A DNA stretch of 64,000 bases from assembly GCF_055900595.2 (NCBI RefSeq), contig NZ_CM148325.1; one strand, written 5' to 3'. The notes under the pieces are model-generated. The model was not told the origin of the DNA. It did not search any database and was given only the letters and a program-made list of their open reading frames with translations. The position numbers and the translations under genes were made by a program. Positions 30,512 through 52,270 of this stretch are shown here, piece after piece. How positions within the stretch are numbered: the first letter of the stretch is position 1; every line of letters starts with the position of its first letter.

Positions 30512-30573
30512 TTCTCCCCCTCATGTGATTCAGGCAGTTTACTCACCCCTTACAGGCCTCCTGCCATGCCCGG

Positions 30574-30597
30574 TGTTGTCGGCATTCGCTTACAACA
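30574..30597. promoter_or_regulatory. dyad TGTTGT-N12-ACAACA (inner TGT-N12-ACA) between divergent P and O
   Basis: perfect 6-bp inverted repeat centred about 55 bp from inferred starts of both P and O. Confidence 0.55.
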
Positions 30598-30665
30598 AAC
30601 GCACTTTGTCTGTCCCTGCCCCGTTTTGCCATCATGAGACAAACGATCATCACGAGGGCCCGACA

Positions 30666-31502: not shown

Positions 31503-31530
31503 CAGAAATAACCACAAGAGGTGATAACCG

Positions 31531-32670: not shown

Positions 32671-32672
32671 CC

Positions 32673-33449
32673 ATGCTGACACCGGCACAGGCTCATTTCC
32701 AGCACGTGATGGCTTTACGGGCAGGAACGGCAGCAGAAAACGAGGATATCGTGGCCCGCACGGCTCATGAGCAGGTCCTTCACCGTCTGCGCCTGGCACA
32801 GCAACGCATAAAGGGCGTCCAGGCAAAAGCGGCAAAGGCCGCGCTCAAGCGTGAAATGCTGCCGGGTTTTGCAGGCTGGATAGACGGCACGCTGGAAGCC
32901 GACGGCGGACAGCAGGATGAGGTGATAGCCACACTCATGGTGTGGGCCGTGGACTGTGGCGACCTGGCGCTTGCACTGCGCATCGGGGATTATGTGGTTC
33001 GCCACAACCTCACGATGCCTGACAACTTCGGGCGTACGGCAGCCACGGTACTGACCGAGGAAATCTGCAACCCTGTTCTGACACAGGCCGGAACGGATGC
33101 ACACGCCGATTTGTCCGGCTACATCGAACCGCTGGACACCCTCTGGCAAATTGTCGCGAACCGGGACATGCCCGATGAGGTCCGCGCCAAGCTGTGCAAG
33201 GCATGCGCCTTTGCCCGTCGTGGCCTGACCGATGCCGACAGCATGGCGGTGAGTCTGAAGCTGTTCCGTGAGGCAATGCACCTTAACCCGAATGCGGGGG
33301 TAAAACGTGAGATTGCCACGCTTTCACGGGCCCTGAAAAAGGCCGGACAGGATGAAGCCGCTGCCGCACAGGAGCCTGCGGCACAGAAAGATACAACCAG
33401 AGAACAGACCACGACGCCGAAGGCGAAAGCGAAGGCGAAACGTGGTTAA
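32673..33449 (+). CDS. M: terminase small (endonuclease) subunit (P2 gpM family)
   Basis: 258 aa, position after N. Confidence 0.8.
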   Translation: MLTPAQAHFQHVMALRAGTAAENEDIVARTAHEQVLHRLRLAQQRIKGVQAKAAKAALKREMLPGFAGWIDGTLEADGGQQDEVIATLMVWAVDCGDLALALRIGDYVVRHNLTMPDNFGRTAATVLTEEICNPVLTQAGTDAHADLSGYIEPLDTLWQIVANRDMPDEVRAKLCKACAFARRGLTDADSMAVSLKLFREAMHLNPNAGVKREIATLSRALKKAGQDEAAAAQEPAAQKDTTREQTTTPKAKAKAKRG

Positions 33450-33550
33450 CGGCTGACCCCGTCAGAAGGCGGCGTGCCGGGCGTTCCGGTTACGGTTTTC
33501 CGTTCCCCTTACACCCGGCACCCACCGCTTTTTTTCTGAAGGAGCGATTT

Positions 33551-34045
33551 ATGAGCATGGTCGCAAGACCGGAAGCCGCCCCTGCACGGGACGATATCCC
33601 CGACACCGACGACGGCGACGCCACCATCACCGCCGGGGCATTCTGGCCGGAGATTGTGCTGCGGGAGCTGCGCCTTGCAGTACGCCTGCCGGGCCGCATC
33701 ACCTCCACACGTCTGGCGCACGTTGCCACGGGAGCCGTGGCTCACGTCACGCGGGAGCTGGAAGAGTGGCAGAAGGCGCAGTCTGCCGCAGGGTTCAGCA
33801 TCCTCGCAGAAGTGCCTGCCGCCACCATCAACGGTGAGAGCGTCAACGTATGGCATTACCGCAACGCCGTCTACAGCGCCACCCGCGCCCTGATTCTGGA
33901 ACGCTGGCGGGATGTGGACACCACTGATAAAGGGGACCGCCGGGCTGACGCACTGGATGAGCAGATGGAAGACTTATGGCGCGATGTGCGCTGGTCCGTG
34001 GCAGATATTCTGGGTCGCCCCCGTCTTTTTGCGGAGCTGGTGTGA
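33551..34045 (+). CDS. L: head completion protein (P2 gpL family)
   Basis: 164 aa, position and size. Confidence 0.75.
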   Translation: MSMVARPEAAPARDDIPDTDDGDATITAGAFWPEIVLRELRLAVRLPGRITSTRLAHVATGAVAHVTRELEEWQKAQSAAGFSILAEVPAATINGESVNVWHYRNAVYSATRALILERWRDVDTTDKGDRRADALDEQMEDLWRDVRWSVADILGRPRLFAELV

Positions 34046-34242
34046 TGAAAGTGAGGGCACTCCAGGGGGATACCGTCGATTTACTCTGTTTCCGGCACTA
34101 CGGCACCACGCAGGGGGTGACCGCACAGGTACTTGATGCCAATCCAGGGCTCTGCCGCCAGGTAATTCTGGAAGCGGGACAGGAGGTGGAGATGCCGGAG
34201 CCGGAAAGGAAACAGCAACGCGAAAAGGTAAAGCTATGGTGA
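34045..34242 (+). CDS. X: tail protein X
   Basis: 65 aa from MKVRALQGDTVD; ATGA-type coupling to L. Confidence 0.7.
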   Translation: MKVRALQGDTVDLLCFRHYGTTQGVTAQVLDANPGLCRQVILEAGQEVEMPEPERKQQREKVKLW

Positions 34243-34526
34243 CGGGATTTTTTCAGCGCGTCAGTGACTGGATCACCTTCTGGGCGTCAGTGACGGCAAC
34301 AACCATTGGTGTTATGACCATCAGCGAAAAAATTGCGCTGGCCGGGCTGCTTCTGGGGTCACTTTCCGCCATCCATGCCTGGTGCCACCGCAGGCGTACG
34401 GAGCAGGCAATGAAGCGCCGCAATGACCTTATCGCCCGCATCCTGGCACGTTCAGAAAACCGCGAGCTTCACGACGGTGAGAGACGGGCACTGGACAGCG
34501 TGAGACAGGACGGAGAAGAGCGGTGA
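34236..34526 (+). CDS. holin (putative)
   Basis: 96 aa, hydrophobic helices followed by charged tail, directly upstream of endolysin. Confidence 0.65.
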   Translation: MVTGFFQRVSDWITFWASVTATTIGVMTISEKIALAGLLLGSLSAIHAWCHRRRTEQAMKRRNDLIARILARSENRELHDGERRALDSVRQDGEER

Positions 34527-35068
34527 AACTGCCGGTAAAACGTTATGCGGTGGCGGCCATTGTGGCGCTGGGCGTCTCCATGGCACCCGGTGAACTGAGA
34601 ACCTCACGGGAAGCACAGATAAAAATCGCCACCCGGGAAGAGTGCCGGGCGACACCGTACCGTGATATTGCAGGAGTAATGACCGTGGGATGTGGTTCAA
34701 CAGGGGGCGTGGAGAACCGGGTTTACGGAGAAAAGGAGGTGGCCCGCCGCTGGGTGAATGACCTGCGGCACGCGGAAAACTGTATCAACCAGAACTTCAG
34801 CGGTGCCGCCATGCCCCAGTCCGCCTTTGAGGCGATGACCGACGCGGCGTTCAACGTCGGCTGTACCGGCCTGATGTGGTACCGGGACAGGAGCGGCAAC
34901 CGGCAGCGCACCACCATCTGGAAGCACGCACAGGCGCACCGCTGGGTGGCGATGTGCGGGAGACTGACCGATTTTGTCAACAGTGGCGGACGCCGCTCAC
35001 AGGGGCTGGTTAACCGCCGGGAGGAGTTCAGACAGTGGTGTCTTCGCGACACGGGAGGCAGCACATGA
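34523..35068 (+). CDS. signal-anchor-release (SAR) type lysozyme endolysin (putative)
   Basis: 181 aa; N-terminal hydrophobic segment YAVAAIVALGVSMAPG followed by E-8-D-5-T catalytic pattern (EECRATPYRDIAGVMT). Confidence 0.7.
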   Translation: MKLPVKRYAVAAIVALGVSMAPGELRTSREAQIKIATREECRATPYRDIAGVMTVGCGSTGGVENRVYGEKEVARRWVNDLRHAENCINQNFSGAAMPQSAFEAMTDAAFNVGCTGLMWYRDRSGNRQRTTIWKHAQAHRWVAMCGRLTDFVNSGGRRSQGLVNRREEFRQWCLRDTGGST

Positions 35069-35472
35069 GACCGGTTTACGCCGTGATTGTTGCCCTCATG
35101 GTGACCACCCTGACGGCGGCGGCCATGTGGCAGTCATACCGGCTGGGGCGTGCCGGTGAGGCACGTGACGCCGCAGAGCAGCAGCTGGGCGAATACAGCC
35201 GGGCGCTGCGTGAGTCCTCCGCCGTTATCAGCGATGCCTCCGCCGTACTGCATGAGGTGATGACGCAGCGACAGAAAAGGGCACAGGAAGGAGAAGTCAG
35301 ACGTGAACAGCTTCGCGAAATTGCTGCGACGGATGAGTGCGCCGGCACTCTTCCTGACCACCGTTTTACTGACCGGCTGCGCGAACACACGGAACGCGCC
35401 ACTGCCCGCGCCCTCCTTCCGGTTCATTCCGGCGGGACTGACGACGGGAACACGGCCCCCGCCCTTCCCTGA
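35065..35472 (+). CDS. i-spanin (Rz/LysB-like)
   Basis: 135 aa from MRPVYAVIVALMV, N-terminal TM then charged coiled-coil domain; ATGA overlap with endolysin stop. Confidence 0.65.
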   Translation: MRPVYAVIVALMVTTLTAAAMWQSYRLGRAGEARDAAEQQLGEYSRALRESSAVISDASAVLHEVMTQRQKRAQEGEVRREQLREIAATDECAGTLPDHRFTDRLREHTERATARALLPVHSGGTDDGNTAPALP

Positions 35473-35617
35473 ACACCCCACCTGGGGAAATATCGGGATA
35501 TGGAGCGACAGCCTCCTGGATGCACTGGAAACCTGCAACGCAGACAAACGGGCCATTGAGGCGATGGAGCGCCGGAGACTCAACCGACAGAACGGAGAGG
35601 CGCATGCTGAAAAGTAA
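35333..35617 (+). CDS. o-spanin lipoprotein (Rz1/LysC-like), overlapping the i-spanin gene in another frame
   Basis: lipobox LLTGC, Pro-rich; starts inside the i-spanin gene and extends past its stop. Confidence 0.6.
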   Translation: MSAPALFLTTVLLTGCANTRNAPLPAPSFRFIPAGLTTGTRPPPFPEHPTWGNIGIWSDSLLDALETCNADKRAIEAMERRRLNRQNGEAHAEK

Positions 35618-36068
35618 ATCCCTGAGCACACACATGAGTACAGCGTGCCGGTGGTGCAGGGCCAACCCGGAAAAGTTCACCGTGTTCATTGAACGTGGCG
35701 GGATAGAGACCACCGGCGAGACGCCGACGTTCGTGTACAACTACCGGCTGGTGATGTTCGTGATGGACTACACGGGCGATCTGGACAACCTGACGCTTCC
35801 ACTGATTGTCTGGCTGGCAGAGAACCAGCCGCAGTTGCTGCTTAATCCTGAGCGCAACAACGATATTCAGTTCACGGCGGCCATTAACGACGACGACAGC
35901 GCGGACGTGCTGTTTGAGCTGCCGTTACGTGAACGCGTGCGCGTCACCCGCAGGGATGACGGCACCCTCATGACAGAACATCTACCGGAGCCGAAATCAC
36001 GCATCCCGCAGGACGGCGACTGGTCACACATTCTGGAGGATGTGACGTGGAACATTGTCACCGGATAA
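35604..36068 (+). CDS. R: tail completion protein (P2 gpR family)
   Basis: 154 aa from MLKSKSLSTHM; position. Confidence 0.65.
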   Translation: MLKSKSLSTHMSTACRWCRANPEKFTVFIERGGIETTGETPTFVYNYRLVMFVMDYTGDLDNLTLPLIVWLAENQPQLLLNPERNNDIQFTAAINDDDSADVLFELPLRERVRVTRRDDGTLMTEHLPEPKSRIPQDGDWSHILEDVTWNIVTG

Positions 36069-36083
36069 CACGCGGAGAATGTT

Positions 36084-36740
36084 ATGGGGAAACTGAGATA
36101 CCGTAACCTCGTTCCCGCTGAAGGAATGAGTAACATGTTTGTCAATATCCGGCTGGCAACCAGCCCGCAGGCAGTGAAGCGCATTGCCGCGCATGTGGGT
36201 AAGGAGCTGCGGCGCGTGAACCAGAGCCGGATGCGCGCCCAGAAAGCGCCGGACGGTTCGGTGTGGACACGCCGTAAACGCCGTATATCACGCCTTCAGG
36301 AGCGCATCAGCTTTATCTGGCAAAACCAGAACCGCACCCTGAAAAACTGGCATCACGGTTCAGGAAAATACGGCCAGACCATCACCGGCTGGGATGAAGA
36401 CCGGAGCGGCATACGTACCTTTTACCGGAGTGATATCCTCCGTTTCCTTGAAATCAGGACACGCCGCATCAACCGTGACACCACAAAAACGGTGCCGATG
36501 TTTGCGAAGCTGCGCACGGCCCGTTATCTGAAAGTGAAGGCGGACGCATCAGGCGTGACGGTGGGCTACAGCGGCGTGGCGGCACGCATTGCCCGCGTTC
36601 ACCAGTTCGGGGAGCGCGACCGGGTGGCCGCAGGGATGTATACGGATTATCCGGCCCGTGAACTTCTTGGAATAACACCGGCAGATGAACGACTTATTCA
36701 GCGTATCATTATGGACAATATCGCGAGGGCTGTGGCATGA
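36084..36740 (+). CDS. S: tail completion protein (P2 gpS-like)
   Basis: position between R and V; start uncertain. Confidence 0.6.
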   Translation: MGKLRYRNLVPAEGMSNMFVNIRLATSPQAVKRIAAHVGKELRRVNQSRMRAQKAPDGSVWTRRKRRISRLQERISFIWQNQNRTLKNWHHGSGKYGQTITGWDEDRSGIRTFYRSDILRFLEIRTRRINRDTTKTVPMFAKLRTARYLKVKADASGVTVGYSGVAARIARVHQFGERDRVAAGMYTDYPARELLGITPADERLIQRIIMDNIARAVA

Positions 36741-37318
36741 ACGCGGAATTAATGCGCCTTATCAGCAACATCATCAGAACCGGCGTGATTTTCGACGTGA
36801 ACCCGCAGACCTGGGAGGTCCGGGTGCGCAGTGGCGGACTGGAGACAGGCTGGCTTCGCTGGAGCACCGCGCGGGCGGGCGCGTTCAGTGTCTGGGTGCC
36901 GCCAGCCACCGGTGAACAGGTGGCGTTCGTCTGTATCGGTGGTAATCCCGAAACCGCGATAATCATCGGCAGCCTCTGGAGCGATGATATCCCGGCACCG
37001 GGCAGCACACTGAAGGAAATCATCATGACAGCACCGGACGGTGCGGTATTCCGCTACGATGCAGACGCCGGTGCACTGGAGGTTAAGGGGATTAAAACAG
37101 CCAGCATTCAGGCCGACACGCGCATCACCCTGGACACGTCGGAGGTGGTGTGTACCCGCAAACTTATCACCGCCACCCTGGAGGTGCAGAACGGCGGCGA
37201 GATGCGCGGCAGCATATCCCACAGCGGCGGCAGCCTGACATCCAACGGTATCACCGTTCATACGCACACCCACGGTGGCGTCAGGACGGGCCCGGGCACC
37301 ACGGGAGGCCCGCAATGA
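36737..37318 (+). CDS. V: baseplate assembly protein V (spike)
   Basis: 193 aa, P2 V-like. Confidence 0.8.
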   Translation: MNAELMRLISNIIRTGVIFDVNPQTWEVRVRSGGLETGWLRWSTARAGAFSVWVPPATGEQVAFVCIGGNPETAIIIGSLWSDDIPAPGSTLKEIIMTAPDGAVFRYDADAGALEVKGIKTASIQADTRITLDTSEVVCTRKLITATLEVQNGGEMRGSISHSGGSLTSNGITVHTHTHGGVRTGPGTTGGPQ

Positions 37319-37665
37319 CCGCTGTTTACAGGGGGATGAACCCGCAGGGAACCGGCACGCTGAGCGACAGCGAACACCTGAAAAACAGCGTGCGGGATAT
37401 CCTGACCACACCGCCAGGCAGCCGGGTGATGCGCCGCGAATACGGCAGCCTGTTACCGGACCTCATCGACGAGCCCATGAACGACACCACGCGTTTACAG
37501 TGCATGAGCGCCACGGTGACTGCGCTGGCGCGCCATGAACCCCGTATAGCACTGCAGAACGTCGATGTGAACTGGCGGGCTGGCGGACGCGCCGTGGTGA
37601 CGTTATCCGGCATCATCACCGAAACCATGCAGAACATCACATTCAGTATCACCCTGAGGGAGTAA
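37315..37665 (+). CDS. W: baseplate protein W (gp25-like)
   Basis: 116 aa from MTAVYRGMNPQG; overlap with V stop. Confidence 0.8.
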   Translation: MTAVYRGMNPQGTGTLSDSEHLKNSVRDILTTPPGSRVMRREYGSLLPDLIDEPMNDTTRLQCMSATVTALARHEPRIALQNVDVNWRAGGRAVVTLSGIITETMQNITFSITLRE

Positions 37666-39124: not shown

Positions 39125-41359
39125 ATGAGCACGAGAAAATTCAGAACCCTTATCACCGACATCGGGCTGGCAAAGCTGGCCGCAACAACGGCGCCTGGCG
39201 GTAGACCTGTACGCCTTACGCACATGGCTGTAGGGGACGGCAATGGAGAGCTTCGTCAGCCGCAGAAAAACCAGACATCGCTTTACAATGAGGTTTGGCG
39301 CCAGTCTGTCAACCGCGTCTTCACCGACCCGGAGAACCCGAACCGCCTCATCGCCGAACTGGTCATTCCTCCTGAAACCGGCGGATTCTGGGTGCGTGAA
39401 ATTGGTGTGTTTGATGATACAGGTACAATGATTGCAGTAGGAAATACCGCTGAAAGTTACAAGCCCACCAGAGAGGAAGGTTCAGGGCGGGCGCAGATAT
39501 TCCGTGCAGTAATCACCGTCACCTCCGACGCCGTGGTGGAACTGGTCATGGACACAACAACAATTCTGCCGACCACGGACTACATTGATGAGAAAATGGC
39601 GGAACACGCACGTTCCCGTAACCACCCTGACGCGACACTGACAGAAAAAGGATTCACCCAACTGAGCAGCGCCACAAACAGCACCTCTGAAACACTGGCC
39701 GCCACACCGAAGGCCGTCAAGGCTGCATATGACCTTGCAGCCGGTAAAGCACCCGCCAGCCACACCCACCCGTGGAATCAGATAACTGGTGTGCCATCAG
39801 CCTCGCTGACGGCAAAAGGCACCGTACAGCTGAGCAGTGCCACAAACAGTGAGTCAGAGACTGAGGCGGCCACCCCCAAAGCGGTTAAAGCCTTACACGA
39901 TATGGTGACGAGCAAGTATACAGGACAGGATGCAACCACCGGACGCAAAGGCATCGTACAGCTGAGCAGCGCCACAAACAGCAATTCCGAAACACTGGCG
40001 GCCACACCGAAGGCAGTAAGTGATGCACTGAGCATGGCGTTCGTGAAGCCAACAACATCCCTGGGGGAAACAGACCTGAACACTCTGGGGCGTAAGGAAG
40101 ACGCGGGAGATTATTACCAGCAGAGTGACTCAGGTGCGAGAACAGACAGAAACTATCCTGTAGAGAAGGCAGGAGAGTTACGCATCCGTGTTGGTGCATG
40201 GGGATTCTGCCAGCATGAATACACGAGCTGGGATCCGCCACGAAAATTTATCAGGACAGTTACCGGAAACTTTAACGGTAACGGCCCATGGTCAGAGTGG
40301 GTGGAGGTGACAAACACAGATGCAACAACTGGACGCAAAGGCATCGTACAGCTGAGCAGCGATACAAACAGCAATTCCGAAACGCTGGCGGCCACACCAA
40401 GAGCCGTCAAGGCTGCATATGACCTTGCAGCCGGTAAAGCACCCGCCAGCCACACCCACCCGTGGAATCAGATAACAGGTGTGCCATCAGCCTCGCTGAC
40501 GGCAAAAGGCACCGTACAGCTGAGCAGTGCCACAAACAGTGAGTCAGAGACTGAGGCCGCCACCCCCAAAGCGGTTAAAGCCTTACACGATATGCTGACG
40601 AGCAAGTATACAGGACAGGATGCAACCACCGGACGCAAAGGCATCGTACAGCTAAGCAGCGCCACAAACAGCAATTCCGAAACGCTGGCGGCCACACCAA
40701 AAGCTGTTAAAGCTGCGTATGACCTTGCCAACAGCAAAGCCTCGGCAGCCCACACTCATCGCTGGGCTCAGATCACAGACGCCCCTGTTTTTTCGTCTGT
40801 TGCCCGCGTCATCATGGGTAAACAAAGCATAAAAGATATTCTTGATTACTTTGGTTTAGGAGAAGGCTCGACGCTGCCAGTTGGCGTACCCGTTCCGTGG
40901 CCTTCGTCAAGACCACCTGAGGGGTGGTTACAGTGCAACGGTGCCGCATTCACGCGTACAAAATACCCAAAACTGGCGGTGGCCTACCCTGACCTCAGGC
41001 TACCAGATTTGCGCGGGGAATTTATTCGTGGATGGGATGACCTGCGAATGATTGACAGGGGACGCTTATTGTTATCCACACAGGAAGCAACATATATTTG
41101 TACCGCCATACAGGCGTACCACGGCGTAGCGGGAGGTGCAGATATTCAGGCAGGGATTTCATTTGCATCACATGATAACGACATCATAAACATAACCCCT
41201 GATCAACCCAGAACCGGTAACGGCATCCTGTACGGCACAAAACCAGTTGACAGATGGGCAATAGCCAGAGCCGGTAAGCTGGTGAGTAATGAAAAAGACA
41301 GATGGATAGCGATCAGACCGCGCAATATCGCTTTTAATTATATTGTGAGGGCAGTTTAA
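39125..41359 (+). CDS. H: tail fibre protein (P2 gpH family) with internal repeats
   Basis: 744 aa; repeated GxVQLSSATNSxSETxAATPKAVK units. Confidence 0.85.
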   Translation: MSTRKFRTLITDIGLAKLAATTAPGGRPVRLTHMAVGDGNGELRQPQKNQTSLYNEVWRQSVNRVFTDPENPNRLIAELVIPPETGGFWVREIGVFDDTGTMIAVGNTAESYKPTREEGSGRAQIFRAVITVTSDAVVELVMDTTTILPTTDYIDEKMAEHARSRNHPDATLTEKGFTQLSSATNSTSETLAATPKAVKAAYDLAAGKAPASHTHPWNQITGVPSASLTAKGTVQLSSATNSESETEAATPKAVKALHDMVTSKYTGQDATTGRKGIVQLSSATNSNSETLAATPKAVSDALSMAFVKPTTSLGETDLNTLGRKEDAGDYYQQSDSGARTDRNYPVEKAGELRIRVGAWGFCQHEYTSWDPPRKFIRTVTGNFNGNGPWSEWVEVTNTDATTGRKGIVQLSSDTNSNSETLAATPRAVKAAYDLAAGKAPASHTHPWNQITGVPSASLTAKGTVQLSSATNSESETEAATPKAVKALHDMLTSKYTGQDATTGRKGIVQLSSATNSNSETLAATPKAVKAAYDLANSKASAAHTHRWAQITDAPVFSSVARVIMGKQSIKDILDYFGLGEGSTLPVGVPVPWPSSRPPEGWLQCNGAAFTRTKYPKLAVAYPDLRLPDLRGEFIRGWDDLRMIDRGRLLLSTQEATYICTAIQAYHGVAGGADIQAGISFASHDNDIINITPDQPRTGNGILYGTKPVDRWAIARAGKLVSNEKDRWIAIRPRNIAFNYIVRAV
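39690..40010 (+). repeat. internal direct repeat copy 1 within tail fibre gene
   Basis: near-identical to 40350..40690. Confidence 0.7.
40350..40690 (+). repeat. internal direct repeat copy 2 within tail fibre gene
   Basis: near-identical to 39690..40010. Confidence 0.7.
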
Positions 41360-41970
41360 TGAGTAACACTGCAGTTCTGGATGAAAACGGTATCGCCACT
41401 TTCGCAGGCGATATCACTGTATATCACTATGATGAGGAAACCCGGGAATACACCTCATCCTCTGTGGAGTATCTCGCCCTGGGGGTGGGTACCCCGGCAC
41501 ATTCATGCGCCGATGCCCCGCCAGAGGCAATGCCGGGTTACGTGATTTGCCGGACGTCCACGCTGGACGGGTGGGAGTATGTCCCCGATCATCGTGGAGA
41601 GACGGTATACAGCACAGAGAACGGTAATCCGGTCCAGATTACCCAACCAGGTGACTACCCGGAAGGGACAACGACAAAACAGCCTGCCACACCATGGGAT
41701 ACCTGGAACGGTGAGGCGTGGGTAACCGATACAGAACGGCAGCAAGCCGAAGAGCTGGAGGTTGCCAGACAGCAACGCAAGGAACGGGTGGATCAGGCGA
41801 TGAAGTCCATCGACCTCATCAACCTTAAGTTGCGGGCAGGTCGCAGTCTGACACCAGAAGAAACGGCAAAACTGAATGCCGTGCTGGATTATATCGACGA
41901 GCTGAACGCACTGGATATCAGCACGGAGCCTGAAATAAGCTGGCCGGAAACACCACCAGAAATGGAATGA
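41359..41970 (+). CDS. G: tail fibre assembly chaperone (P2 gpG family)
   Basis: 203 aa immediately after H with ATGA-type coupling. Confidence 0.8.
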   Translation: MSNTAVLDENGIATFAGDITVYHYDEETREYTSSSVEYLALGVGTPAHSCADAPPEAMPGYVICRTSTLDGWEYVPDHRGETVYSTENGNPVQITQPGDYPEGTTTKQPATPWDTWNGEAWVTDTERQQAEELEVARQQRKERVDQAMKSIDLINLKLRAGRSLTPEETAKLNAVLDYIDELNALDISTEPEISWPETPPEME

Positions 41971-42023
41971 GCGGGGAAAAGGAACGGGCATTCATAAATA
42001 ATTCATCATGCAGGTGCCGCAAG

Positions 42024-42043
42024 AATGCGGCACATTACCTTCA
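42024..42043. terminator. bidirectional hairpin between convergent G and U (GTGCCGCA-AGAA-TGCGGCAC)
   Basis: perfect 8-bp stem. Confidence 0.5.
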
Positions 42044-42529
42044 CATCAGATCATTTACGCCGCTTACTGTGGTATTCCAGACCGAACTTAACTTCCCTTT
42101 CATTCCCGAAAGCATATCAGACACCGGCGACGAGGCCATACTCTCCCGCAAATCCTCATCACAGCGTTCCAGACTGACAGTGAACTCAATTTTTTTGGCC
42201 TTACCGTGGCGGTCAAGTTCGCTTCGCGTTGTGCGGACAGCCGTTATCACATACATGCCGTATATCTGCCCCACACCGTCAATCAGCGGCCATGGGCGAC
42301 CAGTGTAAGCCTGCGTCGTTAAAAGGCTGAGGGAAACCTCACCGCCGGTAATTTCGGGATAAAGCACACCGGACAACGTGATCTGGTCGTCACCCGCCCC
42401 GATATACTGCCAGCTGGCCGAACGATTGATGCGTTCATTTTTAACGTGGCGCCAGGTTTTATTATGTTGCAGTTGTTGATGAGGCAGCGTACGCAACTCA
42501 AAAACAAACATGCCGTAAATCATCATCAT
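42041..42529 (-). CDS. U: tail protein U
   Basis: 162 aa, P2 U-like (MMMIYGMFVFELRTLP...). Confidence 0.85.
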   Translation of the reverse strand: MMMIYGMFVFELRTLPHQQLQHNKTWRHVKNERINRSASWQYIGAGDDQITLSGVLYPEITGGEVSLSLLTTQAYTGRPWPLIDGVGQIYGMYVITAVRTTRSELDRHGKAKKIEFTVSLERCDEDLRESMASSPVSDMLSGMKGKLSSVWNTTVSGVNDLM

Positions 42530-42540
42530 GCGAGGTACTC

Positions 42541-45500
42541 CTAATCTCTGTCACGGAAACTACCGACTGTCTGGCGGATACGGCGTTCCATTTCCGCACG
42601 GACGGCATCACCCACCATTTTTGCCAGTTCGCGCGGGTTTTGCGTGTGAACATCATGCAGGTGAATATGCAGTTCGCCAGTTAATCCCCATGGTGCCGGC
42701 TCACTCTGGCGCGGTCGGGGCGATGCGGGGGATATGGGCTGGCGCACAGCCTCAACCACCGGACGGGATGTTGCCGCCATCACTGGTGTCATTAGCGGGG
42801 AGAACGTCGGCATGACATCGTGAGTCATAACCGGTTTGATCACCGGCGGAACCACTGGCGTAATATTACCGGACAGTACCGGACGGACGACCGGAGGAAT
42901 AACCGGCACATTATTCACGGACACCACCGGCTTCACGACCGGCGACACGTTCGCCGTGGTGGATATCAGCGGCGAAACACTGACAGGCGGTGGCGCTGGC
43001 AGCGGTGGCAACGAAGGCACACTGACCGACGGCACCTGCGGCAGTCTGACAGGTGGCTCACTGACACTACCCGGTAACAGGGAAGCTGCTCGGTTAAAGC
43101 GTTCCTCCTTCCACTCACCACGAACGGCCAGCGCTTCCGGCAGGTTTTTAAAGATAATATCGCCGGGACCAGCGCGTTTTTTCGCCTGTTTCGCCTCATC
43201 CAGCAGACCACCGGTGTTATCGACGATTTTGTTCAGGCGGCGCATAGTGCCGGTATTCTCCCCCGTCAGGGGTGGTTGCCCCCCTTTGGGTTTTTCGCCG
43301 TCTTTTTTATCCTCGTCCTTTTTCGGCGGATTAATGACGTTAACATCCGCCAGAAGCATGGCAGCTTTCTCGTTCAGCAACTCCTTCTGTTTTAGTTCTT
43401 CCGCCTTTTTCCGGGCGCGCTCAACCGCCGACGGAATCAGCCCGAGTTTTTCCAGCACCCGGGTTAATGAGTCAATCAGCAGCGTAACCGGACCGGTCAC
43501 CAGATTGCTGATAAACTCCCCGACCTTCTGCCCGAACGTACGCCCGGCTTCCGTGCACTTGTCCAGCTCATCCTTTGTTGTGCTTACCGGCGCGAACAAA
43601 TCCACGAACCACTGCCACACACGCCCGATTGTCTGCCCGACATACTCAAACAGCGGTCCCAGTGGTGCCACAGCCTCGCGCAGTGGCGTAAGCCCCTGCC
43701 ACAGGCCGGACAAGAACCCGCCCACGACAGCCTTCAGCTGGTCCCAGTGCCGCCAGATAAGCACTGCCGCACCGACCAGTGTCGCCACCACAAGGCCCAC
43801 CGGACTTAACAGAAAACCCAGCGCCCCGCCAAGTGCGCCCACCGCACCACTCACCATCCCCCACAGTGCGGGCAGACCTGACAGTCTGAGCGCCAGTATT
43901 CCGATACCGCGCCCCAGTGAAATCAGTGCGCCGCCAGGTGAAGTGAACGCAGCCAGCAGACCACCACGCAGCGCGCCAAGTCCCGCCTGCACACCACGAA
44001 GCCGCCCCGCAACTACGCCCAGCAGTGCAGCAAACCGTCCGGCACCGGAGGTGATACCGACAAACAGCACGCGCCAGCCACCGATACCGCCCAGCGGACC
44101 ACCGAGTACGCCGCGCAGCTGCGTCAGTAACGGCAGCGCACGACCGAGGCCGGATGTGCCGGTCAGCAGGGCAAACCCAAGACGCAGTTTTGCCAGCGGC
44201 CCCATCAACACACCAGTGGCAAGTGACAGCGCCCCCATGGCCGCAACCGCAGCCAGCAGTACACCACCGGCAATCAGCAGTTGTTTTGTCAGTTCAGGGT
44301 GCGCCTGAGCCAGCGCGGTGACTTTCGCAATAACCCGGGTGAACGACTGCGTGACAGAACGCAGCGGCCCGTCAACGAGGTCAGCGACACGGATACGCAG
44401 TCCTTCCCATGCGCTGTTCAGTGATTTCAGGTCACCGTCCAGGTTATCAGCCATAACACGGGCAGTGTGATTAAGTTCCCCGGTGGCCAGTTCAATCTCC
44501 TGCGTAAGACGGGGAAGATTATTTTCCCCCGCCGCAGTGACAAGATTCATCAGGGAAACATAGGACTCCTGCCCGGCAATAGCCCTGAAAAAGGAGACCT
44601 GCGCGGCATTACCGTATTTTCGGGTGGCCTGGTACAGCTCATTCAGGATATTTTCCATCCGGCGCATGTTCCCGTAAGCATCCTGCGTCTCCACGCCAAG
44701 CTCTTTCAGTGCCATTGCAGCGGCCTTCGGCGGATCAACCAGACGTGACAGACTGGCACGCAGCGCCGTACCTGCATCACTTCCACGGATCCCCACACTG
44801 CCAAGGACACCCGTCATGGCTGCCGCCTGTTCAAGGGACAGGCCAAGTGAAGCTGCAACCGGACCCGTGTACTTCATGGTTTCACCCAGCGAACGGAGAT
44901 CCGTATTGGTTCGTGTGAAGGTGGCGGCCAGCGTGTCACCCACGCGATCCATCTGGTCAGCGGACAGACCAAACTGTGTGAGGATATTCGAACTGATATC
45001 GGCAGTCTGTCCCAGGTCCATCCCTGCAGCCATTGCCAGATCAAGCACGCCGGGTAGCGCCGCCTGTATGGCCTGTGGTGTGAAGCCGGCCATGGCAAGG
45101 AACGCCTGACCGCTGGCAGCATCACCGGCGGTAAACTGCGTTTCAGAGCCCAGCTTAATGGCCTGTTCGCGCAGCGCCTTAAACTGCGGACTGTTTTTGT
45201 CAATACGGGTCAGCGCCTGGACGCGCGACATCTCCTTACCAAAACTGACCGCCGGTTGCAGGAAACGTCCGGCCGCATAGCCGCCTGCCGCCGCCGTACC
45301 AACCGCCGTAAGTCCGACCGTTTTAAGTTTTCCCGCCGTCTCCTGAGCACGGGAATATTGCTGGCGTGCCTGCGTGACACGTGCCAGCGCCTGCCGTTCG
45401 CGTTCCAGCTGGTCGTTGTATTGCTGTGTTCGCCGTATGGCCTGTTGAATGGTGTTGTCACTGCCGGAAAGCGCAATACCGTGGCGCCGCAGCTCACCAC

Positions 45501-45852
45501 CCAGTTCGCGCATTCGCTGAACTTCACGCGCACGGACCTCATTGAGACGCTCAAGTTTGAGGCTCAAATCGTTCATCAGCTTTTTCTGTTTGTCAGACAG
45601 CACGGTTCCGGCGCGCTGAATTTGCTGAAGTGCGCTTAACTGGCGTTGCGCCCTGACAATGCCGTTTCCGGCCTTGTTTGCAGCCTCGCGGGCGCGATCA
45701 AATGAACGGGCGTGGCGTTCCAGGTTTTTGATCGCACCCTGCGTTCTCTGTATGGAGTCGCCAAGCTGGCCCATCATGCGACGGGCGTTTTCGGTGGGAC
45801 GGGTCAGCCTGTCAACAGCGCTGAAGGCGACCCGTATATCAAGCGTTTTCAT
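42541..45852 (-). CDS. T: tail tape measure protein (P2 gpT family), extended
   Basis: about 1100 aa; start taken at MKTLDIRVAF where E' terminates; C-terminal Pro/Val-rich repeat region. Confidence 0.85.
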   Translation of the reverse strand: MKTLDIRVAFSAVDRLTRPTENARRMMGQLGDSIQRTQGAIKNLERHARSFDRAREAANKAGNGIVRAQRQLSALQQIQRAGTVLSDKQKKLMNDLSLKLERLNEVRAREVQRMRELGGELRRHGIALSGSDNTIQQAIRRTQQYNDQLERERQALARVTQARQQYSRAQETAGKLKTVGLTAVGTAAAGGYAAGRFLQPAVSFGKEMSRVQALTRIDKNSPQFKALREQAIKLGSETQFTAGDAASGQAFLAMAGFTPQAIQAALPGVLDLAMAAGMDLGQTADISSNILTQFGLSADQMDRVGDTLAATFTRTNTDLRSLGETMKYTGPVAASLGLSLEQAAAMTGVLGSVGIRGSDAGTALRASLSRLVDPPKAAAMALKELGVETQDAYGNMRRMENILNELYQATRKYGNAAQVSFFRAIAGQESYVSLMNLVTAAGENNLPRLTQEIELATGELNHTARVMADNLDGDLKSLNSAWEGLRIRVADLVDGPLRSVTQSFTRVIAKVTALAQAHPELTKQLLIAGGVLLAAVAAMGALSLATGVLMGPLAKLRLGFALLTGTSGLGRALPLLTQLRGVLGGPLGGIGGWRVLFVGITSGAGRFAALLGVVAGRLRGVQAGLGALRGGLLAAFTSPGGALISLGRGIGILALRLSGLPALWGMVSGAVGALGGALGFLLSPVGLVVATLVGAAVLIWRHWDQLKAVVGGFLSGLWQGLTPLREAVAPLGPLFEYVGQTIGRVWQWFVDLFAPVSTTKDELDKCTEAGRTFGQKVGEFISNLVTGPVTLLIDSLTRVLEKLGLIPSAVERARKKAEELKQKELLNEKAAMLLADVNVINPPKKDEDKKDGEKPKGGQPPLTGENTGTMRRLNKIVDNTGGLLDEAKQAKKRAGPGDIIFKNLPEALAVRGEWKEERFNRAASLLPGSVSEPPVRLPQVPSVSVPSLPPLPAPPPVSVSPLISTTANVSPVVKPVVSVNNVPVIPPVVRPVLSGNITPVVPPVIKPVMTHDVMPTFSPLMTPVMAATSRPVVEAVRQPISPASPRPRQSEPAPWGLTGELHIHLHDVHTQNPRELAKMVGDAVRAEMERRIRQTVGSFRDRD

Positions 45853-46002
45853 GCTCTGCGTTCCCGCTGCGAAGGGCCGCCCGCTCACGCCAGGCGACCA
45901 CCTCGCCGGGATCCATCAGGAAGATTTCAGCGGGAGACCAGTTGAAAATAACGGCGATATCCGCCACAAAGTCTTCAATGTGCTCAAAGGGCACGACGGT
46001 TA

Positions 46003-46365
46003 TCAGCCTGCCGTCGCCGCCCCACTCTTCCCGCCAGAGTCCTGACCGGCCAAAAAATTAACCGCCACCCCGCACAGCTGAATAAAATCAGCGGACCCCA
46101 TGCGCTTAAGCAGAACCTCGTCCAGTCGCGGCGAAGTGACGCGCGGGAGTAACTCAAACATCGCGTCCGTTTTCATGTTCAGCACGTCAAGCAGTGACAG
46201 CCCGCGCAGTGAACCGGCCTGCTGTACAGCAGGCGTGATTTCCACATACGTGATTTTTTTGTTACCGAGCACAAGGGGCGTTTTCAGCGTCACGCCGCGC
46301 TCACTGGTCACGTCCGCCGCATCAGCACCGTCAGTAACAGGGGCAACAACCGGATTTTCTTTCAT
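46003..46365 (-). CDS. E: tail assembly chaperone E (E' produced by -1 frameshift, extending to 45839)
   Basis: position between FII and T; slippery TTTTTTG near 3' end; -1 frame stays open until overlapping the T start. Confidence 0.75.
   Translation of the reverse strand: MKENPVVAPVTDGADAADVTSERGVTLKTPLVLGNKKITYVEITPAVQQAGSLRGLSLLDVLNMKTDAMFELLPRVTSPRLDEVLLKRMGSADFIQLCGVAVNFLAGQDSGGKSGAATAG
46051..46057 (-). other. programmed -1 ribosomal frameshift slippery heptamer TTTTTTG (E/E')
   Basis: heptamer 14 codons before the E stop; -1 frame open for about 70 codons. Confidence 0.65.
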
Positions 46366-46415
46366 GCATAAAACCTCAAATCAGGGGGCGACGCCGCGCG
46401 CCGCCGTGGGAAACA

Positions 46416-46934
46416 TTAACCACCAAGACCAATCGCCGAGCGCACGCGGTCCGGGAAGACGTTTTTGCCGTCCTTGCGTTCGATGTGGTTCAGTAAATCA
46501 ATCTCCAGCACCGGACGGTCGTTAATGCTGAGTTTGTAGTAGGTACTCCTGACCGCATAGGTGTGAGACGTGACCTCACCCTGTTTTGCCTCCCCCGTAT
46601 CAATTTCCGTCACGCGGCCGCGAAGCTCAATTTCATACAGGTCGCTCTGCTCTTCATCGTTGTAGTACTCACCGACAAAGCGCAGCAGCGTACCGTCGAT
46701 CGTGCCGCCGTACTTAAGGAACAGTTCGCGGGTCGGCCCGCCCATGGTGAAACTCGCATCCAGCGCGCCGTCATCCAGACCAAGGTCGATATTCACCGCG
46801 CCGGCCATACCACCACCGCGATAGGCTTCCGTTTTACGGGTCAGTTTGGGGGGGGTGAAGCCGGTCACCCTGCCAATCTGGTTCACCCCGTCAGTAAACA
46901 GCGTGAACACCCTGAGATTTTTTGGTACGGCCAT
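46416..46934 (-). CDS. FII: tail tube protein (P2 gpFII family)
   Basis: 172 aa, P2 FII-like. Confidence 0.85.
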   Translation of the reverse strand: MAVPKNLRVFTLFTDGVNQIGRVTGFTPPKLTRKTEAYRGGGMAGAVNIDLGLDDGALDASFTMGGPTRELFLKYGGTIDGTLLRFVGEYYNDEEQSDLYEIELRGRVTEIDTGEAKQGEVTSHTYAVRSTYYKLSINDRPVLEIDLLNHIERKDGKNVFPDRVRSAIGLGG

Positions 46935-48127
46935 TAAGCACCTCCAAGCGTCGCAAATGCAGGACCAAAGAATTCATCAGTAAACGTCTGGTAAAGTTCC
47001 ATATCCTCAAGCGGCGGAACGGGCGTGTACTTGTAGCGGATACGCACGCGTCCCTGACGAAGTTCCGTGGTGCTGTTATCCACCACGTCATACCAGCACT
47101 CCGCACCAATGAGACGTCCTGACGTAACCAGCGCATCCAGTTTTGCGCGAATTGCGCTTAACACGTCTTTCACATTAGCAGGGGTCAGCGGGGCATCAAT
47201 CGTTTCAAACTGCGCTTCCGCAATGGAATCAGCCAGCACCTGAGCGGTTCGCGTGTACACCTCAAAGAGATACGCCTTCGTTTCCGGCGTACGGTTGCCC
47301 CAGAAGCGGAAACCGTTACGGCAAATGATGGTAGTGATTTCCTTGTTGTTGAGATTGTTGGCATCGCTGTCTTCGGACTGAAGGGACCAGAACACCGGGC
47401 TGGAAATACCCAGCACATTTCTTACCGGCACGTTGGACAGCGATTTATGCCAGCCCTGTTCGTGGTCAATACGTGCACGTAAACCGCAGGCGTACGCCGC
47501 AGCCGGGAAGACCTCATTAGCGCCGGATTTCGGGTTATGGGCGATGAAGTCCGGCCAGACCAGCATAAGTTCGCGCTCGTTAAATCTGGCGCGGTAGCTG
47601 ATTGCATCGGCGGGCTTCTTGCAGTTGTGACAGCCCGCGTAGACAAATGCGCGAAGTTTTTCTGCAATTACACACAGGGATTTTGTGACAGCTTCAGTAT
47701 CCAGTCCGGGAGCTGCGATGATGCGCGGACGGTAACCGATGGCATCATCCTGTTCAGCTATCAGAAGTGCATACATGCCGGTATAGTTTCCGTCATCATC
47801 AGAACCACCGATAACGAGTTTGTCCTGGGTTTGTCCTGAATGCGTCTCTTCCTTAAATTCAGGAACGCGCACCACAATCACCTTCGTGCTCACCTGGTCG
47901 GCGACAGCCTTAAGCGATTTGTAAAGCGTCCCCTTTGTGCCGGCCTTACCCAGCACATCACTGACGCGGGTCAGCAGTGTGGGTTTGTTCAGCGGGAACA
48001 GAGTTTCATCCGCGTCATCTGCCGTAGCCACAATACCAATAACACTGGAATCCACATCATTAATGGCGGTGGCAAGGCCGGTACTTTCCCTTACGCGCGC
48101 ACCATGAAAGCGTGTTTCACTCATATG
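46934..48127 (-). CDS. FI: tail sheath protein (P2 gpFI family)
   Basis: about 397 aa from MSETRFHGARV; the six-frame ORF extends further upstream. Confidence 0.85.
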   Translation of the reverse strand, partial: HMSETRFHGARVRESTGLATAINDVDSSVIGIVATADDADETLFPLNKPTLLTRVSDVLGKAGTKGTLYKSLKAVADQVSTKVIVVRVPEFKEETHSGQTQDKLVIGGSDDDGNYTGMYALLIAEQDDAIGYRPRIIAAPGLDTEAVTKSLCVIAEKLRAFVYAGCHNCKKPADAISYRARFNERELMLVWPDFIAHNPKSGANEVFPAAAYACGLRARIDHEQGWHKSLSNVPVRNVLGISSPVFWSLQSEDSDANNLNNKEITTIICRNGFRFWGNRTPETKAYLFEVYTRTAQVLADSIAEAQFETIDAPLTPANVKDVLSAIRAKLDALVTSGRLIGAECWYDVVDNSTTELRQGRVRIRYKYTPVPPLEDMELYQTFTDEFFGPAFATLGGA

Positions 48128-48198
48128 TTTCACCCTTGTCTGGCTGGTTGATTTTGCGTAATCATTACCCACACACGCGGTAATCTCACCCCTTTGAT

Positions 48199-48220
48199 GT
48201 TGTCTCCTGACAGCGACAAC
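48199..48220. promoter_or_regulatory. dyad GTTGTC-N10-GACAAC (contains TGT-N12-ACA) in divergent FI/D intergenic region
   Basis: inverted repeat centred about 55 bp from inferred starts of both FI (minus) and D (plus). Confidence 0.55.
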
Positions 48221-48285
48221 AAAACAGCCATTCAACGCCGCTGCGGTGCATGAAACCATTACAGAACGCACCAGGAGAGAACACC

Positions 48286-49377
48286 ATGAAAGAGCTGTCA
48301 GTTACCGTTCCGTCACCGGATATCGACATCACCATCAACAACAACACACTGGCAAACCTCACAGAGCGACTCATGACGCTGACCCTGACGGATAACCGGG
48401 CCTTTGAGGCAGACCGCGTCACCCTCACCCTTGACGATACGGACGGGCAGTTACAGTTGCCACCACGTGGCGCACGCCTGAGAGTGATGATTGGCTGGCG
48501 AGGAGAATCACTGGTTAACAAGGGCACCTACGTCGTTGATGAGGTTGCGTGGGAAGGACCTCCAGATAAACTGATCATCACCGCCAGCAGCGCAGATTTT
48601 CGGGAAGAGTTCAACGTGAGGCGGGAGGTATCCTGGCACGACGTGACCGTAAAACAGGTTGTGTCAGCCATCGCTCACCGCTACGGCCTGAAGACACAGA
48701 TAAGCGAAATCCTCATGGATATCGAAATTGACCACGCTGACCAGACCGAAGAGAGCGATATATCCTTCCTGACCCGCATGGCTGAAATGCTGGGTGCGAT
48801 TGCCACCGTAAAAAACGGCAGCCTGTTATTCATTCTGCCGGGTGGCGGAACCGGGCCGGACGGAAGAGCCCTGCCTTCGTTCGCCATTACCCGCAGCAGC
48901 GGCGACAGTCACCGCTTTCGCATTGCTGACCGTGATGCGTATACGGGGGTCCGGGCGCACTGGCTCGATCTGAAGTTCGGGCAAAAGAAAAAAGTGAACG
49001 TGAAGCGACGCAGGGAAGCCGGGAAACAGAAACAGGAGAAGAGCAGCAGCCGGGAGGGTGATTACATGGAAGGCGCGGAAGGGAACGTCTACGTTCTGCG
49101 CAGGACTTACCAGAATGAAGAAACCGCACGACGTGCAGCTGCGGCAAAGTGGCAGGAGTTACAGCGGGGAGCAGCGGCATTCTCCATCACTCTGGCACGG
49201 GGTCGTGCCGACCTGTATCCCGAAATGCACGGCAGGGTAACAGGTTTTAAAAGCGAGGTGGACAATCAGGACTGGATTATTGCCAGGGTGGAGCACATCA
49301 TAGATGAAAGCGGCTTCACCACACAACTGGAGCTGGAAGCGAAAATCCCCGAATGGATAGCAGATTCAGGCGGATAA
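48286..49377 (+). CDS. D: tail protein D (late control D family)
   Basis: about 363 aa from MKELSVTVPSP (ORF opens at 48250). Confidence 0.8.
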   Translation: MKELSVTVPSPDIDITINNNTLANLTERLMTLTLTDNRAFEADRVTLTLDDTDGQLQLPPRGARLRVMIGWRGESLVNKGTYVVDEVAWEGPPDKLIITASSADFREEFNVRREVSWHDVTVKQVVSAIAHRYGLKTQISEILMDIEIDHADQTEESDISFLTRMAEMLGAIATVKNGSLLFILPGGGTGPDGRALPSFAITRSSGDSHRFRIADRDAYTGVRAHWLDLKFGQKKKVNVKRRREAGKQKQEKSSSREGDYMEGAEGNVYVLRRTYQNEETARRAAAAKWQELQRGAAAFSITLARGRADLYPEMHGRVTGFKSEVDNQDWIIARVEHIIDESGFTTQLELEAKIPEWIADSGG

Positions 49378-49420
49378 AATTAAAATGAGCCATCTCCACT
49401 CAGCCAGATAAGGAGAAGCC

Positions 49421-49672
49421 ATGTTCCGTTGTCCCCTATGCGGTGCATCCGCACGTATCCGCACCAGTCGCAATGAAAATGATTCAGGCACAGTTCGCCT
49501 GAAGTACTACCAGTGCAATAACCTCGAATGCGGGATCGGCTTTACCACACTGGAGGGTTTTAACAAATTCACATCAAAACGCGCCCCGTCGCCGCAGGGT
49601 ACAGAGCGGATACCGTGGGAAGATTTTCCGGGATCTCACAGGGGGAATACTCAGATTAATCTTGATATTTAA
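49421..49672 (+). CDS. ogr: Ogr/Delta-family zinc-finger late transcription activator
   Basis: 83 aa; CPLC...C..NLEC zinc-binding arrangement like P2 Ogr. Confidence 0.85.
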   Translation: MFRCPLCGASARIRTSRNENDSGTVRLKYYQCNNLECGIGFTTLEGFNKFTSKRAPSPQGTERIPWEDFPGSHRGNTQINLDI

Positions 49673-49784
49673 GAACAATAATCAGGTTGAGAGGACATCA
49701 TAAGGCAAGTAGATTAACGGCAGATACTTTCCCGCAACCACGGGCAAGTATTTAATTATCCATGATGAAATATGACCTAAATTG

Positions 49785-49817
49785 TTTTTTGCCCGCCGGA
49801 AAGCGGGCATTTTTTTA
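49785..49817 (+). terminator. terminator hairpin copy 1 (GCCCGCCGGAAAGCGGGC plus T-run)
   Basis: first of nine near-identical hairpins in 49.8-53.0 kb. Confidence 0.7.
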
Positions 49818-50030
49818 TTCTTTTGTGGTTATGGGGTCATCAGGAACCACGTGCAGATTATATTTTTGTTTTTTTGGCGTTCCTCCGGCAGCAACGAGTT
49901 CATCAATAAGACACTGACACGCCTGAACATCCCGGGCATGTCTTAGTTTCACCTTTATTGATTTAACCTTATCCTCACCGGAGGAGAAATGCAGTTCAAT
50001 CTCAATATCGTTTCTTCGGAACAATCTCAT
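49815..50030 (-). CDS. 71-aa hypothetical protein, intact copy of a repeated gene
   Basis: MRLFRRNDIEIELHFSSGEDKVKSIKVKLRHARDVQACQCLIDELVAAGGTPKKQKYNLHVVPDDPITTKE; decayed paralogues at 51101..51199 and 51784..51855. Confidence 0.55.
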   Translation of the reverse strand: MRLFRRNDIEIELHFSSGEDKVKSIKVKLRHARDVQACQCLIDELVAAGGTPKKQKYNLHVVPDDPITTKE

Positions 50031-51445: not shown

Positions 51446-51621
51446 TTTTTTTTGCGCCTGCCATCGAGGCGCCTTCCCTGGCGCACACAAAGCAGCCCTG
51501 ATTTTCCATGAAAACTTCAGGGTTGAGCCAAAAGCACAAAGACAGTAGATTAACCACGGGTGCCTTCCACCTGACAACAGGAAGGGTGTCCAGTATCAAT
51601 GACAGACAACTCACATTGCTG
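51446..51621 (+). ncRNA. structured module S2
   Basis: paralogue of S1. Confidence 0.35.
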
Positions 51622-52102: not shown

Positions 52103-52270
52103 GGCGGTTACCATCGCCTCACCTTCCTGGTTCACATGAAGCAACCCTGATTTTCCATGAAAACTTCAGGGTTGAGACAAAAGCACAAAGACAGTAGATT
52201 AACCACGGGTACCTTCCACCTGACAACAGGAAGGCTGTCCAGTATCAATGACAGACAACTCACATTGCTG
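52103..52270 (+). ncRNA. structured module S3
   Basis: paralogue of S1/S2. Confidence 0.35.

Follow-up and report, generated by a model that had tools for sequence, protein, structure and literature searches.

The closest described parallels to the divergent late promoters predicted here come from phage P2. Its reference record (NC_001895) annotates one "activator binding site; pO, pP promoters" (3057-3087), with transcription starts at 3016 for P (leftward) and 3127 for O (rightward). In the same record FI, FII, E, E′, T, U and D form a single operon, co-directional with V through G, in which D is the last gene; an Ogr-type site lies 5′ of FI, at pF, and ogr lies 3′ of D. For these P2 promoters, whose starts are annotated, the -10 centres lie 46.5 bp (pP), 45.5 bp (pO) and 47 bp (pF) from the centre of their site. 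In Stenotrophomonas phage Smp131, both PP′ and PO′ have been placed on one palindromic TGT-N12-ACA (nt 4381-4398) acting in both directions (PMC3931495). Smp131 is a distant P2-like phage, and its prediction, which like every promoter statement in our analysis derives from sequence comparison only, concerns P/O and not the tail operon. Here we describe a P2-like prophage in a 64,000-nucleotide stretch of the E. coli chromosome (contig NZ_CM148325.1; hereafter the window), in which the tail genes FI to U are inverted relative to P2 and diverge from D across a spacer carrying a dyad that very probably serves, in both directions, as a site for an Ogr-type activator.

Orientation of the FI-U block and its distribution

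In the window, the minus strand carries U, T, E/E′, FII and FI, a block flanked by G on one side and by D and ogr on the other, all three on the plus strand. This layout had been proposed from the sequence of the window, and PHROG, NCBIfam and the RefSeq annotation agree with it. The P2 reference record likewise bears out the co-directional order that had been stated for P2. The canonical order is therefore not the one found in the window, as FI-U is opposite in strand to both G and D, and D, which closes the co-directional operon of P2, is split from U. The inversion of the FI-U block relative to P2 is confirmed.

Homologues of the whole P2-like (Peduoviridae) contractile-tail gene set (FI, FII, E/E′ with its frameshift, T, U and D) were found. 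Gene identities and strands were established by PHROG and NCBIfam searches together with the RefSeq annotation of an identical E. coli locus. The NCBIfam search gave no above-cut-off match for U, FI, E, D or ogr, and these were identified from PHROG matches, precomputed Pfam matches of the orthologues in relatives, pairwise comparisons and RefSeq names. The rightward baseplate/tail-fibre operon ends with the tail fibre assembly gene G (41359-41970, plus strand; phrog_105, E=2e-87; "tail fiber assembly protein" in RefSeq). On the minus strand lie the tail protein gene U (42041-42529; phrog_76, E=3e-71, the orthologues of relatives carrying PF06995 Phage_P2_GpU), the tape measure gene T (42541-45852, 1103 aa from the ATG at 45852; phrog_28, E=3e-183; TIGR01760, 262 bits), E (46003-46365) with E′ in the -1 frame (45839-46051), matched by phrog_103 and phrog_1756 for E and E+E′, the tail tube gene FII (46416-46934; TIGR01611, 118 bits, above cut-off) and the tail sheath gene FI (46934-48124; phrog_23, E=2e-116). 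The plus strand resumes with D (48286-49377; phrog_52, E=7e-148, orthologues with PF05954 Phage_GPD), the tail/baseplate hub gene known as "late control D", and with ogr (49421-49672; "ogr/Delta-like zinc finger family protein" in RefSeq, orthologues with PF04606), which encodes a zinc-finger late activator of the Ogr/Delta type. The ogr product has its four cysteines spaced as CX2C-X24-CX4C and shares 42% identity with P2 Ogr over a stretch of 53 aa (E=7e-15).

Apart from its orientation, the block resembles the P2 F operon in having homologous genes and the same E/E′ -1 frameshift heptamer. The slippery sequence T_TTT_TTG, which is in the register of the E frame, occupies 46057-46051; the -1 frame after it is open to 45839, and the E+E′ product made by the frameshift spans 45839-46365.

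The inverted layout extends well beyond this genome. An 8.8-kb query from the window aligned on a single strand, over 99-100% of its length and at an identity of at least 99.6%, in 26 independent complete E. coli genomes. Phage P88 (Xuanwuvirus, NC_026014) has the same order as the window, H G ... U- T- E′- E- FII- FI- D+. The layout also occurs in phiT5282H (Novemvirus), ST16-OXA48phi5.4 (Reipivirus) and 3LV2017 (Reginaelenavirus), which together with P88 represent four genera of the International Committee on Taxonomy of Viruses (ICTV). Among the IMG/VR loci retrieved with FI (84-88% identical), D and ogr diverge from FI and U converges with the tail-fibre genes in 80 of 80. The GTDB scan, with one genome per species, yielded another 80 loci of two kinds. 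All 18 with an FI 66-85% identical to that of the window are inverted; their hosts are Citrobacter, Edwardsiella, Kosakonia, Trabulsiella, Pantoea stewartii, Serratia, Izhakiella, Symbiopectobacterium, Klebsiella, Enterobacter and Erwinia psidii. All 62 with a P2-type FI (46-50% identical to that of the window and closer to P2) are canonical, and these come from Pantoea, Xenorhabdus, Photorhabdus, Burkholderia, Pseudomonas, Acinetobacter and others.

The FI protein of the window is 45% identical to that of P2 and 85% identical to that of P88. It is thus nearer to P88 than to P2 and, with FI-U inverted and D/ogr divergent from FI, the window has the features of the P88-type lineage. The inversion is a fixed character of one branch of Peduoviridae and not a peculiarity of this genome. 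It is most simply explained by a single ancient inversion event; the outgroups are all canonical.

Likeness to P88, phiT5282H, ST16-OXA48phi5.4 and 3LV2017 includes the inverted FI-U block with divergent D, the paired sites at P/O and FI/D described below, and an overlap of S and V. At the nucleotide level, about 1.8 kb (~21%) of the 8.8-kb query aligns with P88-like phages in megablast, at ~78% identity. The ICTV genus threshold is ~70% nucleotide identity over the whole genome, and the window was compared by the 8.8-kb query alone. P88 also differs in that its G and U are separated by a cassette of invertase and alternative-fibre genes, absent from the window, and in having the half-site GTTCT where the window has GTTGT.

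Synteny comparison with P2 and its relatives thus showed the arrangement to be common among reference P2-like genomes. Because it is displayed in deposited, annotated reference phage genomes, it is not new, and the novelty implied by the original prediction is not supported: P88, phiT5282H, ST16-OXA48phi5.4 and 3LV2017 share the order, and a shared site was already annotated for pP/pO of P2. For annotation, this means that the inverted block of P88-type prophages should be read neither as misassembly nor as recent rearrangement. It marks the clade and sets these genera cleanly apart from the P2-type and 186-type phages.

The FI/D spacer and its sister site at P/O

FI and D diverge as first proposed, and the spacer between their start codons measures 161 bp (48125-48285) instead of the 158 bp initially given. 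It contains a perfect 7-bp dyad with a 10-bp gap, TGTTGTC-N10-GACAACA (48198-48221, centre 48209.5), slightly longer than the GTTGTC-N10-GACAAC noticed at the outset, and we predict it to be an Ogr-type activator site. The TGT-N12-ACA element reported within the dyad is present at 48201-48218. By itself it is not significant, with 10 matches in the window against 16.7 expected, and we rejected it as stand-alone evidence because the matches are fewer than chance would give.

A predicted promoter lies on either side of the dyad. That of FI has the -10 hexamer AATGAT (48161-48166, minus strand), 46 bp from the dyad centre; that of D has the extended -10 TG-A-AACCAT (48251-48259, plus strand), with the hexamer centre 47 bp away. 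Transcription is predicted to start at about 48154 on the minus strand and about 48266 on the plus strand, 55.5 and 56.5 bp from the centre, which would leave leaders of ~30 nt for FI and ~20 nt for D that contain the ribosome-binding sites. The earlier estimate of about 55 bp from both starts is accordingly right for the predicted transcription starts and wrong for the start codons, which lie 85.5 bp (FI) and 76.5 bp (D) from the dyad centre. Within the FI/D spacer, no sigma-70-type -35/-10 pair was called.

The same elements stand out when the FI/D spacers of 21 distinct relatives are aligned. The right half-site ACAACAAAA is nearly invariant and most other spacer positions diverge. On the D side the TG of the extended -10 is invariant and is followed by nAnnnT; the FI side reads nAnnAT, so that the A at position 2 and the T at position 6 are kept in both hexamers. 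Twenty of the 21 spacers keep 46-47 bp between the centre of the site and that of the -10 hexamer on either side.

Elsewhere in the window the site recurs once only, between the terminase gene P (minus strand) and the scaffold gene O (plus strand), where TGTTGTC-N10-TACAACA occupies 30574-30597. The 26-nt pattern TGTTGTC-N10-KACAACAAA has exactly two exact matches in 64 kb, one at P/O (30574-30599) and one in the FI/D spacer. A position weight matrix built from ten sites of the clade, the two of the window included, found one site in the FI/D spacer and no third site in the window. At P/O, each side has a -10-like hexamer 47 bp from the site centre, and the O side also has TGn.

The left half-sites of the two loci vary together. 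We compared P/O and FI/D spacers in nine phages, namely the window, P88, phiT5282H, ST16-OXA48phi5.4, 3LV2017 and prophages of Edwardsiella, Serratia, Erwinia type and Citrobacter youngae type. In all nine, the left half-site has the same bases at P/O as at FI/D in its variable positions 3 and 5, and the forms seen are GTTGT, GTTCT or ATTCT, and GGTCT or GGCCT. The five-base core is identical at both sites in six phages: GTTGT in the window and 3LV2017, GTTCT in P88, and GGTCT in phiT5282H, ST16-OXA48phi5.4 and the Serratia prophage. One other position differs in the remaining three, with GTTCT at P/O and ATTCT at FI/D in the Edwardsiella and C. youngae-type prophages, and GGTCT and GGCCT, respectively, in the Erwinia-type prophage. 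The window and 3LV2017, which share GTTGT, are not mutually closest by FI identity. Such joint change of sites 17.6 kb apart is what would be expected if one phage-specific protein reads both. The concerted change at two distant loci offers a natural data set on the DNA specificity of Ogr-family zinc fingers, a specificity that also governs cross-activation between helper phages and P4-like satellites.

An apparent correlation in ten phages between half-site type and the Ogr residue two positions after the fourth cysteine was dropped, since it fails in 34 distinct Ogr/site pairs, where Ile occurs with GTTGT, GTTCT and ATTCT. How the strong and weak half-sites are oriented in comparison with P2 was uninformative, being consistent with pF having moved with FI and opposite at P/O.

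Compared with P2, the predicted FI/D control region would be a second instance of the pP/pO architecture, placed at the tail operon. In both, one partially palindromic site lies between divergent late operons, with the core register GTTG-N14-CAAC containing TGT-N12-nCA; on both sides the centre is separated from the -10s by ~46-47 bp and from the starts by ~55-56 bp, and the spacing of the -10 centres is 93 bp in the FI/D spacer against 92 bp at pP/pO. The differences are that the P2 architecture serves the packaging and head operons only, whereas the window has this second copy at FI/D, that the P2 site is the poorer palindrome, and that the P2 starts are mapped whereas those of the window are predicted. 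The likeness extends to pF, where the Ogr-type site 5′ of FI is also centred 47 bp from the -10.

Other repeats occur in these spacers. An inverted repeat ATTACC/GGTAAT with a 9-bp gap (48164-48169 and 48179-48184) overlaps the predicted FI -10, and the motif GGTAATCT also resembles the P-side -10 region of relatives, in the opposite direction. An alternating CG tract, CGCGCGCG, stands directly 5′ of the -10 in most relatives on the D and P sides (for example L165:6690-6710 and L165:22320-22335), and the FI and O sides are without it. Its counterpart in the window (48232-48250) is degenerate, reading GCCGCTGCGGTGCA.

Proposed shared late control and its alternatives

The spacer has the features of Ogr/Delta/B-dependent promoters, that is, a partial dyad of the TGT-N12-ACA type, a -10, a poor -35 and a site centred near -55 relative to the predicted starts. 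A gene for the cognate zinc-finger activator, ogr, is part of the same element and lies beside D. The arrangement also appears to be that of a single activator site between two divergent late units with both predicted -10s at class-I distance. We consider it likely that these observations trace back to an ancestor of the P88 lineage in which the block was inverted and a single shared activator site came to serve two divergent, activator-dependent promoters. The bidirectional late promoter raised in the original prediction is, in this sense, well supported by the comparative evidence.

In such a scenario, a segment holding the F-operon promoter and FI-U would have inverted once in the common ancestor, with one breakpoint between G and the pF site and the other between U and D, bringing the pF site beside D. 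A P2-type F operon would thereby have been split into a leftward FI-FII-E/E′-T-U operon and a rightward D(-ogr) unit. As the site would work symmetrically, as at P/O, D could have stayed under late control by acquiring only a -10 element 46 bp away. The outcome would be the present 161-bp spacer, with a single (pseudo)palindromic Ogr-type site ~55-57 bp upstream of both divergent promoters, whose -10s lack a good -35. If true, the lineage would illustrate neatly how, in nature, an inversion that splits an operon can be tolerated thanks to a regulatory palindrome.

After derepression, Ogr would accumulate and bind two sites, 48198-48221 and its sister at 30574-30597. Positioned at about -55, it would contact RNA polymerase on either face and recruit it on both sides; contact of Ogr with RNA polymerase's alpha subunit is known from rpoA109 genetics in P2, the rpoA109 allele (alpha L290H) being one that blocks late transcription of the phage. 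Two polymerases would not overlap, because the -10s are 93 bp apart. The leftward transcript would run from FI through U and end at the hairpin facing G, and the rightward transcript would cover D and ogr, with its end at the terminator (49790-49819). Transcription from the D promoter reading through into ogr would provide positive feedback, as does pF read-through in P2. In addition, a -10-like TAAAAT (49381-49386, plus strand) in the 43-bp gap between D and ogr is similar to the -10 annotated for the ogr promoter in P2; the aligned sequences are AACTAAAATGGCACCATC in P2 and AATTAAAATGAGCCATC in the window, with no -35 evident. This similarity suggests that ogr keeps a promoter of its own.

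Several points weigh against the shared-site interpretation. The left half-site is mostly a poor palindrome partner in relatives (GGTCT or GTTCT against the ideal TGTTGT), and the perfect symmetry of the window's dyad is not a conserved trait; the clade typically has a strong right half with a weaker, phage-specific left. The -10 hexamers are weak matches, at 3-4 of 6 positions, and the invariant extended -10 (TGn) on the D side could permit activator-independent transcription. Kinship among the relatives inflates the apparent independence of the 21 spacers and of the nine site pairs. Finally, we found no paper commenting on the FI-U inversion or the FI/D promoter in a search that covered little of the older P2/186 literature; the P88 paper (PMC5285337) and those on Citrobacter phiSM (PMC6456863), Burkholderia P2-like phages (PMC3091744) and BIS20 (PMC8986868) are silent on both.

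The alternative that deserves most attention is that the site serves the FI operon only, as the homologue of P2 pF, with D and ogr transcribed from an independent promoter of the extended -10 type that needs no activator. Extended -10 promoters can fire without a -35 or an activator, and both the invariant TG 5′ of D and the -10-like element that ogr too appears to keep would fit. This proposal leaves unaccounted for the position of the D-side -10, which is fixed at 46-47 bp from the site centre across otherwise diverging spacers. The same distance recurs at pO and pF of P2 and on the O side of the prophage's own P/O region, which also has TGn. D, moreover, is a structural gene of the tail, with late genes as its stoichiometric partners. 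We therefore regard an independent D promoter as unlikely, though as a rival to be taken seriously.

Two further explanations concern the orientation itself, and we give both a negligible probability. A mis-oriented 6.2-kb block, the assembly inversion that had been offered as an alternative from the start, has nothing in its favour beyond the short palindromic elements that bound the block. It is ruled out by the comparative data: the region is collinear in the 26 complete E. coli genomes as well as in all relatives examined, with the same order in the four isolated phages, the 80 IMG/VR contigs and the 18 species-level genomes, and the sequence diverges smoothly through both junctions. A programmed invertible segment of the shufflon or Gin/Cin type, switching the orientation of the tail operon, would find some encouragement in P88 and certain relatives, which have a DNA invertase and alternative tail-fibre genes beside U. 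The block of the window is not a switchable segment of this kind, because no long inverted repeats flank it; there is no invertase gene at its G/U junction, and more than 120 loci show one and the same orientation. An origin of the inversion through the neighbouring Gin/Cin-type invertase is also unsupported, as the search for crossover sites was negative: no 8-10-mer of the crossover repeat of P88 (TTATCGAATACCTCGGTTTACAGGAAACGG...) recurs in the FI/D spacer or at the invertase-U junction.

Returning to shared control of FI and D, the late regulon of this lineage may have been condensed further. In the window, S (36084-36740) and V (36737-37318) overlap by 4 bp (36737-36740), an overlap shared by all the genomes examined, among them P88, phiT5282H, ST16-OXA48phi5.4, 3LV2017 and the relatives L170-L173, whereas in P2 orf30 and a terminator lie between S and V. 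The separate pV of P2 seems to be absent from the lineage, and given the S/V overlap and the lack of a third activator site, the O transcript probably continues through V to G. Four late units would then be driven from two bidirectional regions. For the fuller proposal, in which the late regulon was reduced to two symmetric regions (P/O and FI/D), pV was lost, the sites co-evolve with their own Ogr and the symmetric pF site made the inversion viable, we see even chances. The comparison as a whole predicts a second bidirectional Ogr-dependent region, with starts at about 48154 (minus) and 48266 (plus), and a late regulon run from only two activator sites. The gain is incremental and changes no concept; its chief practical value lies in annotation.

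Junctions, probable terminators and the prophage setting

U and G converge, as originally described, at a hairpin with an 8-bp stem and a 4-nt loop (42014-42033, arms 42014-42021 and 42026-42033). It has no clear T-run and was not called by the terminator scan. At the same junction relatives have clearer GC hairpins with flanking A and T runs, and because of these and of its position, the hairpin of the window is probably a weak bidirectional terminator. The scan did call an intrinsic terminator-like hairpin with a T-run 3′ of ogr (49790-49819, plus strand).

The G/U junction is a cargo hotspot in relatives (L002 5934-8082; L166 28611-30514; L173 13298-13855) and is empty in the window. The cargo includes a DNA invertase in P88, with alternative fibre genes, and in a Citrobacter-type prophage, and a DUF262 gene in ST16-OXA48phi5.4. 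The fun(Z) gene of P2 occupies the same position.

The window is E. coli chromosome with an intact P2-like prophage of the P88 lineage, its integrase at 16193-17197 and ogr at 49421-49672. E. coli GF4 carries an identical copy of window 41000-49800, placed between dmsABC and serS. The GF4 prophage has lost O through part of W (L001 16416-16666 against window 30511-37665), so that the terminase is directly followed by a truncated baseplate gene, and its replication gene is disrupted too. The window copy is intact over the region deleted in GF4 (30511-37665).

T is intact and long in the window, at 1103 aa against 935 aa in P88, and its C-terminal part is repetitive and Pro/Val-rich. On the identical GF4 sequence, RefSeq records T as a pseudogene truncated at its C-terminal end, together with a fragment. 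An indel separates most other strains from the window; it is one of ~93 bp somewhere inside the 8.8-kb query, and we suspect it to lie in the repetitive part of T. In P88 and 3LV2017, tblastn places an ogr orthologue directly after D, and both reference records omit it.

Just beyond the prophage, the 18-mer TGTCCAGTATCAATGACA is present twice in identical form, at 51587-51604 and 52236-52253, 649 bp apart. The region corresponds to the hok/gef and IS421 region of strain GF4, and the pair suggests a direct repeat or a duplicated element there.

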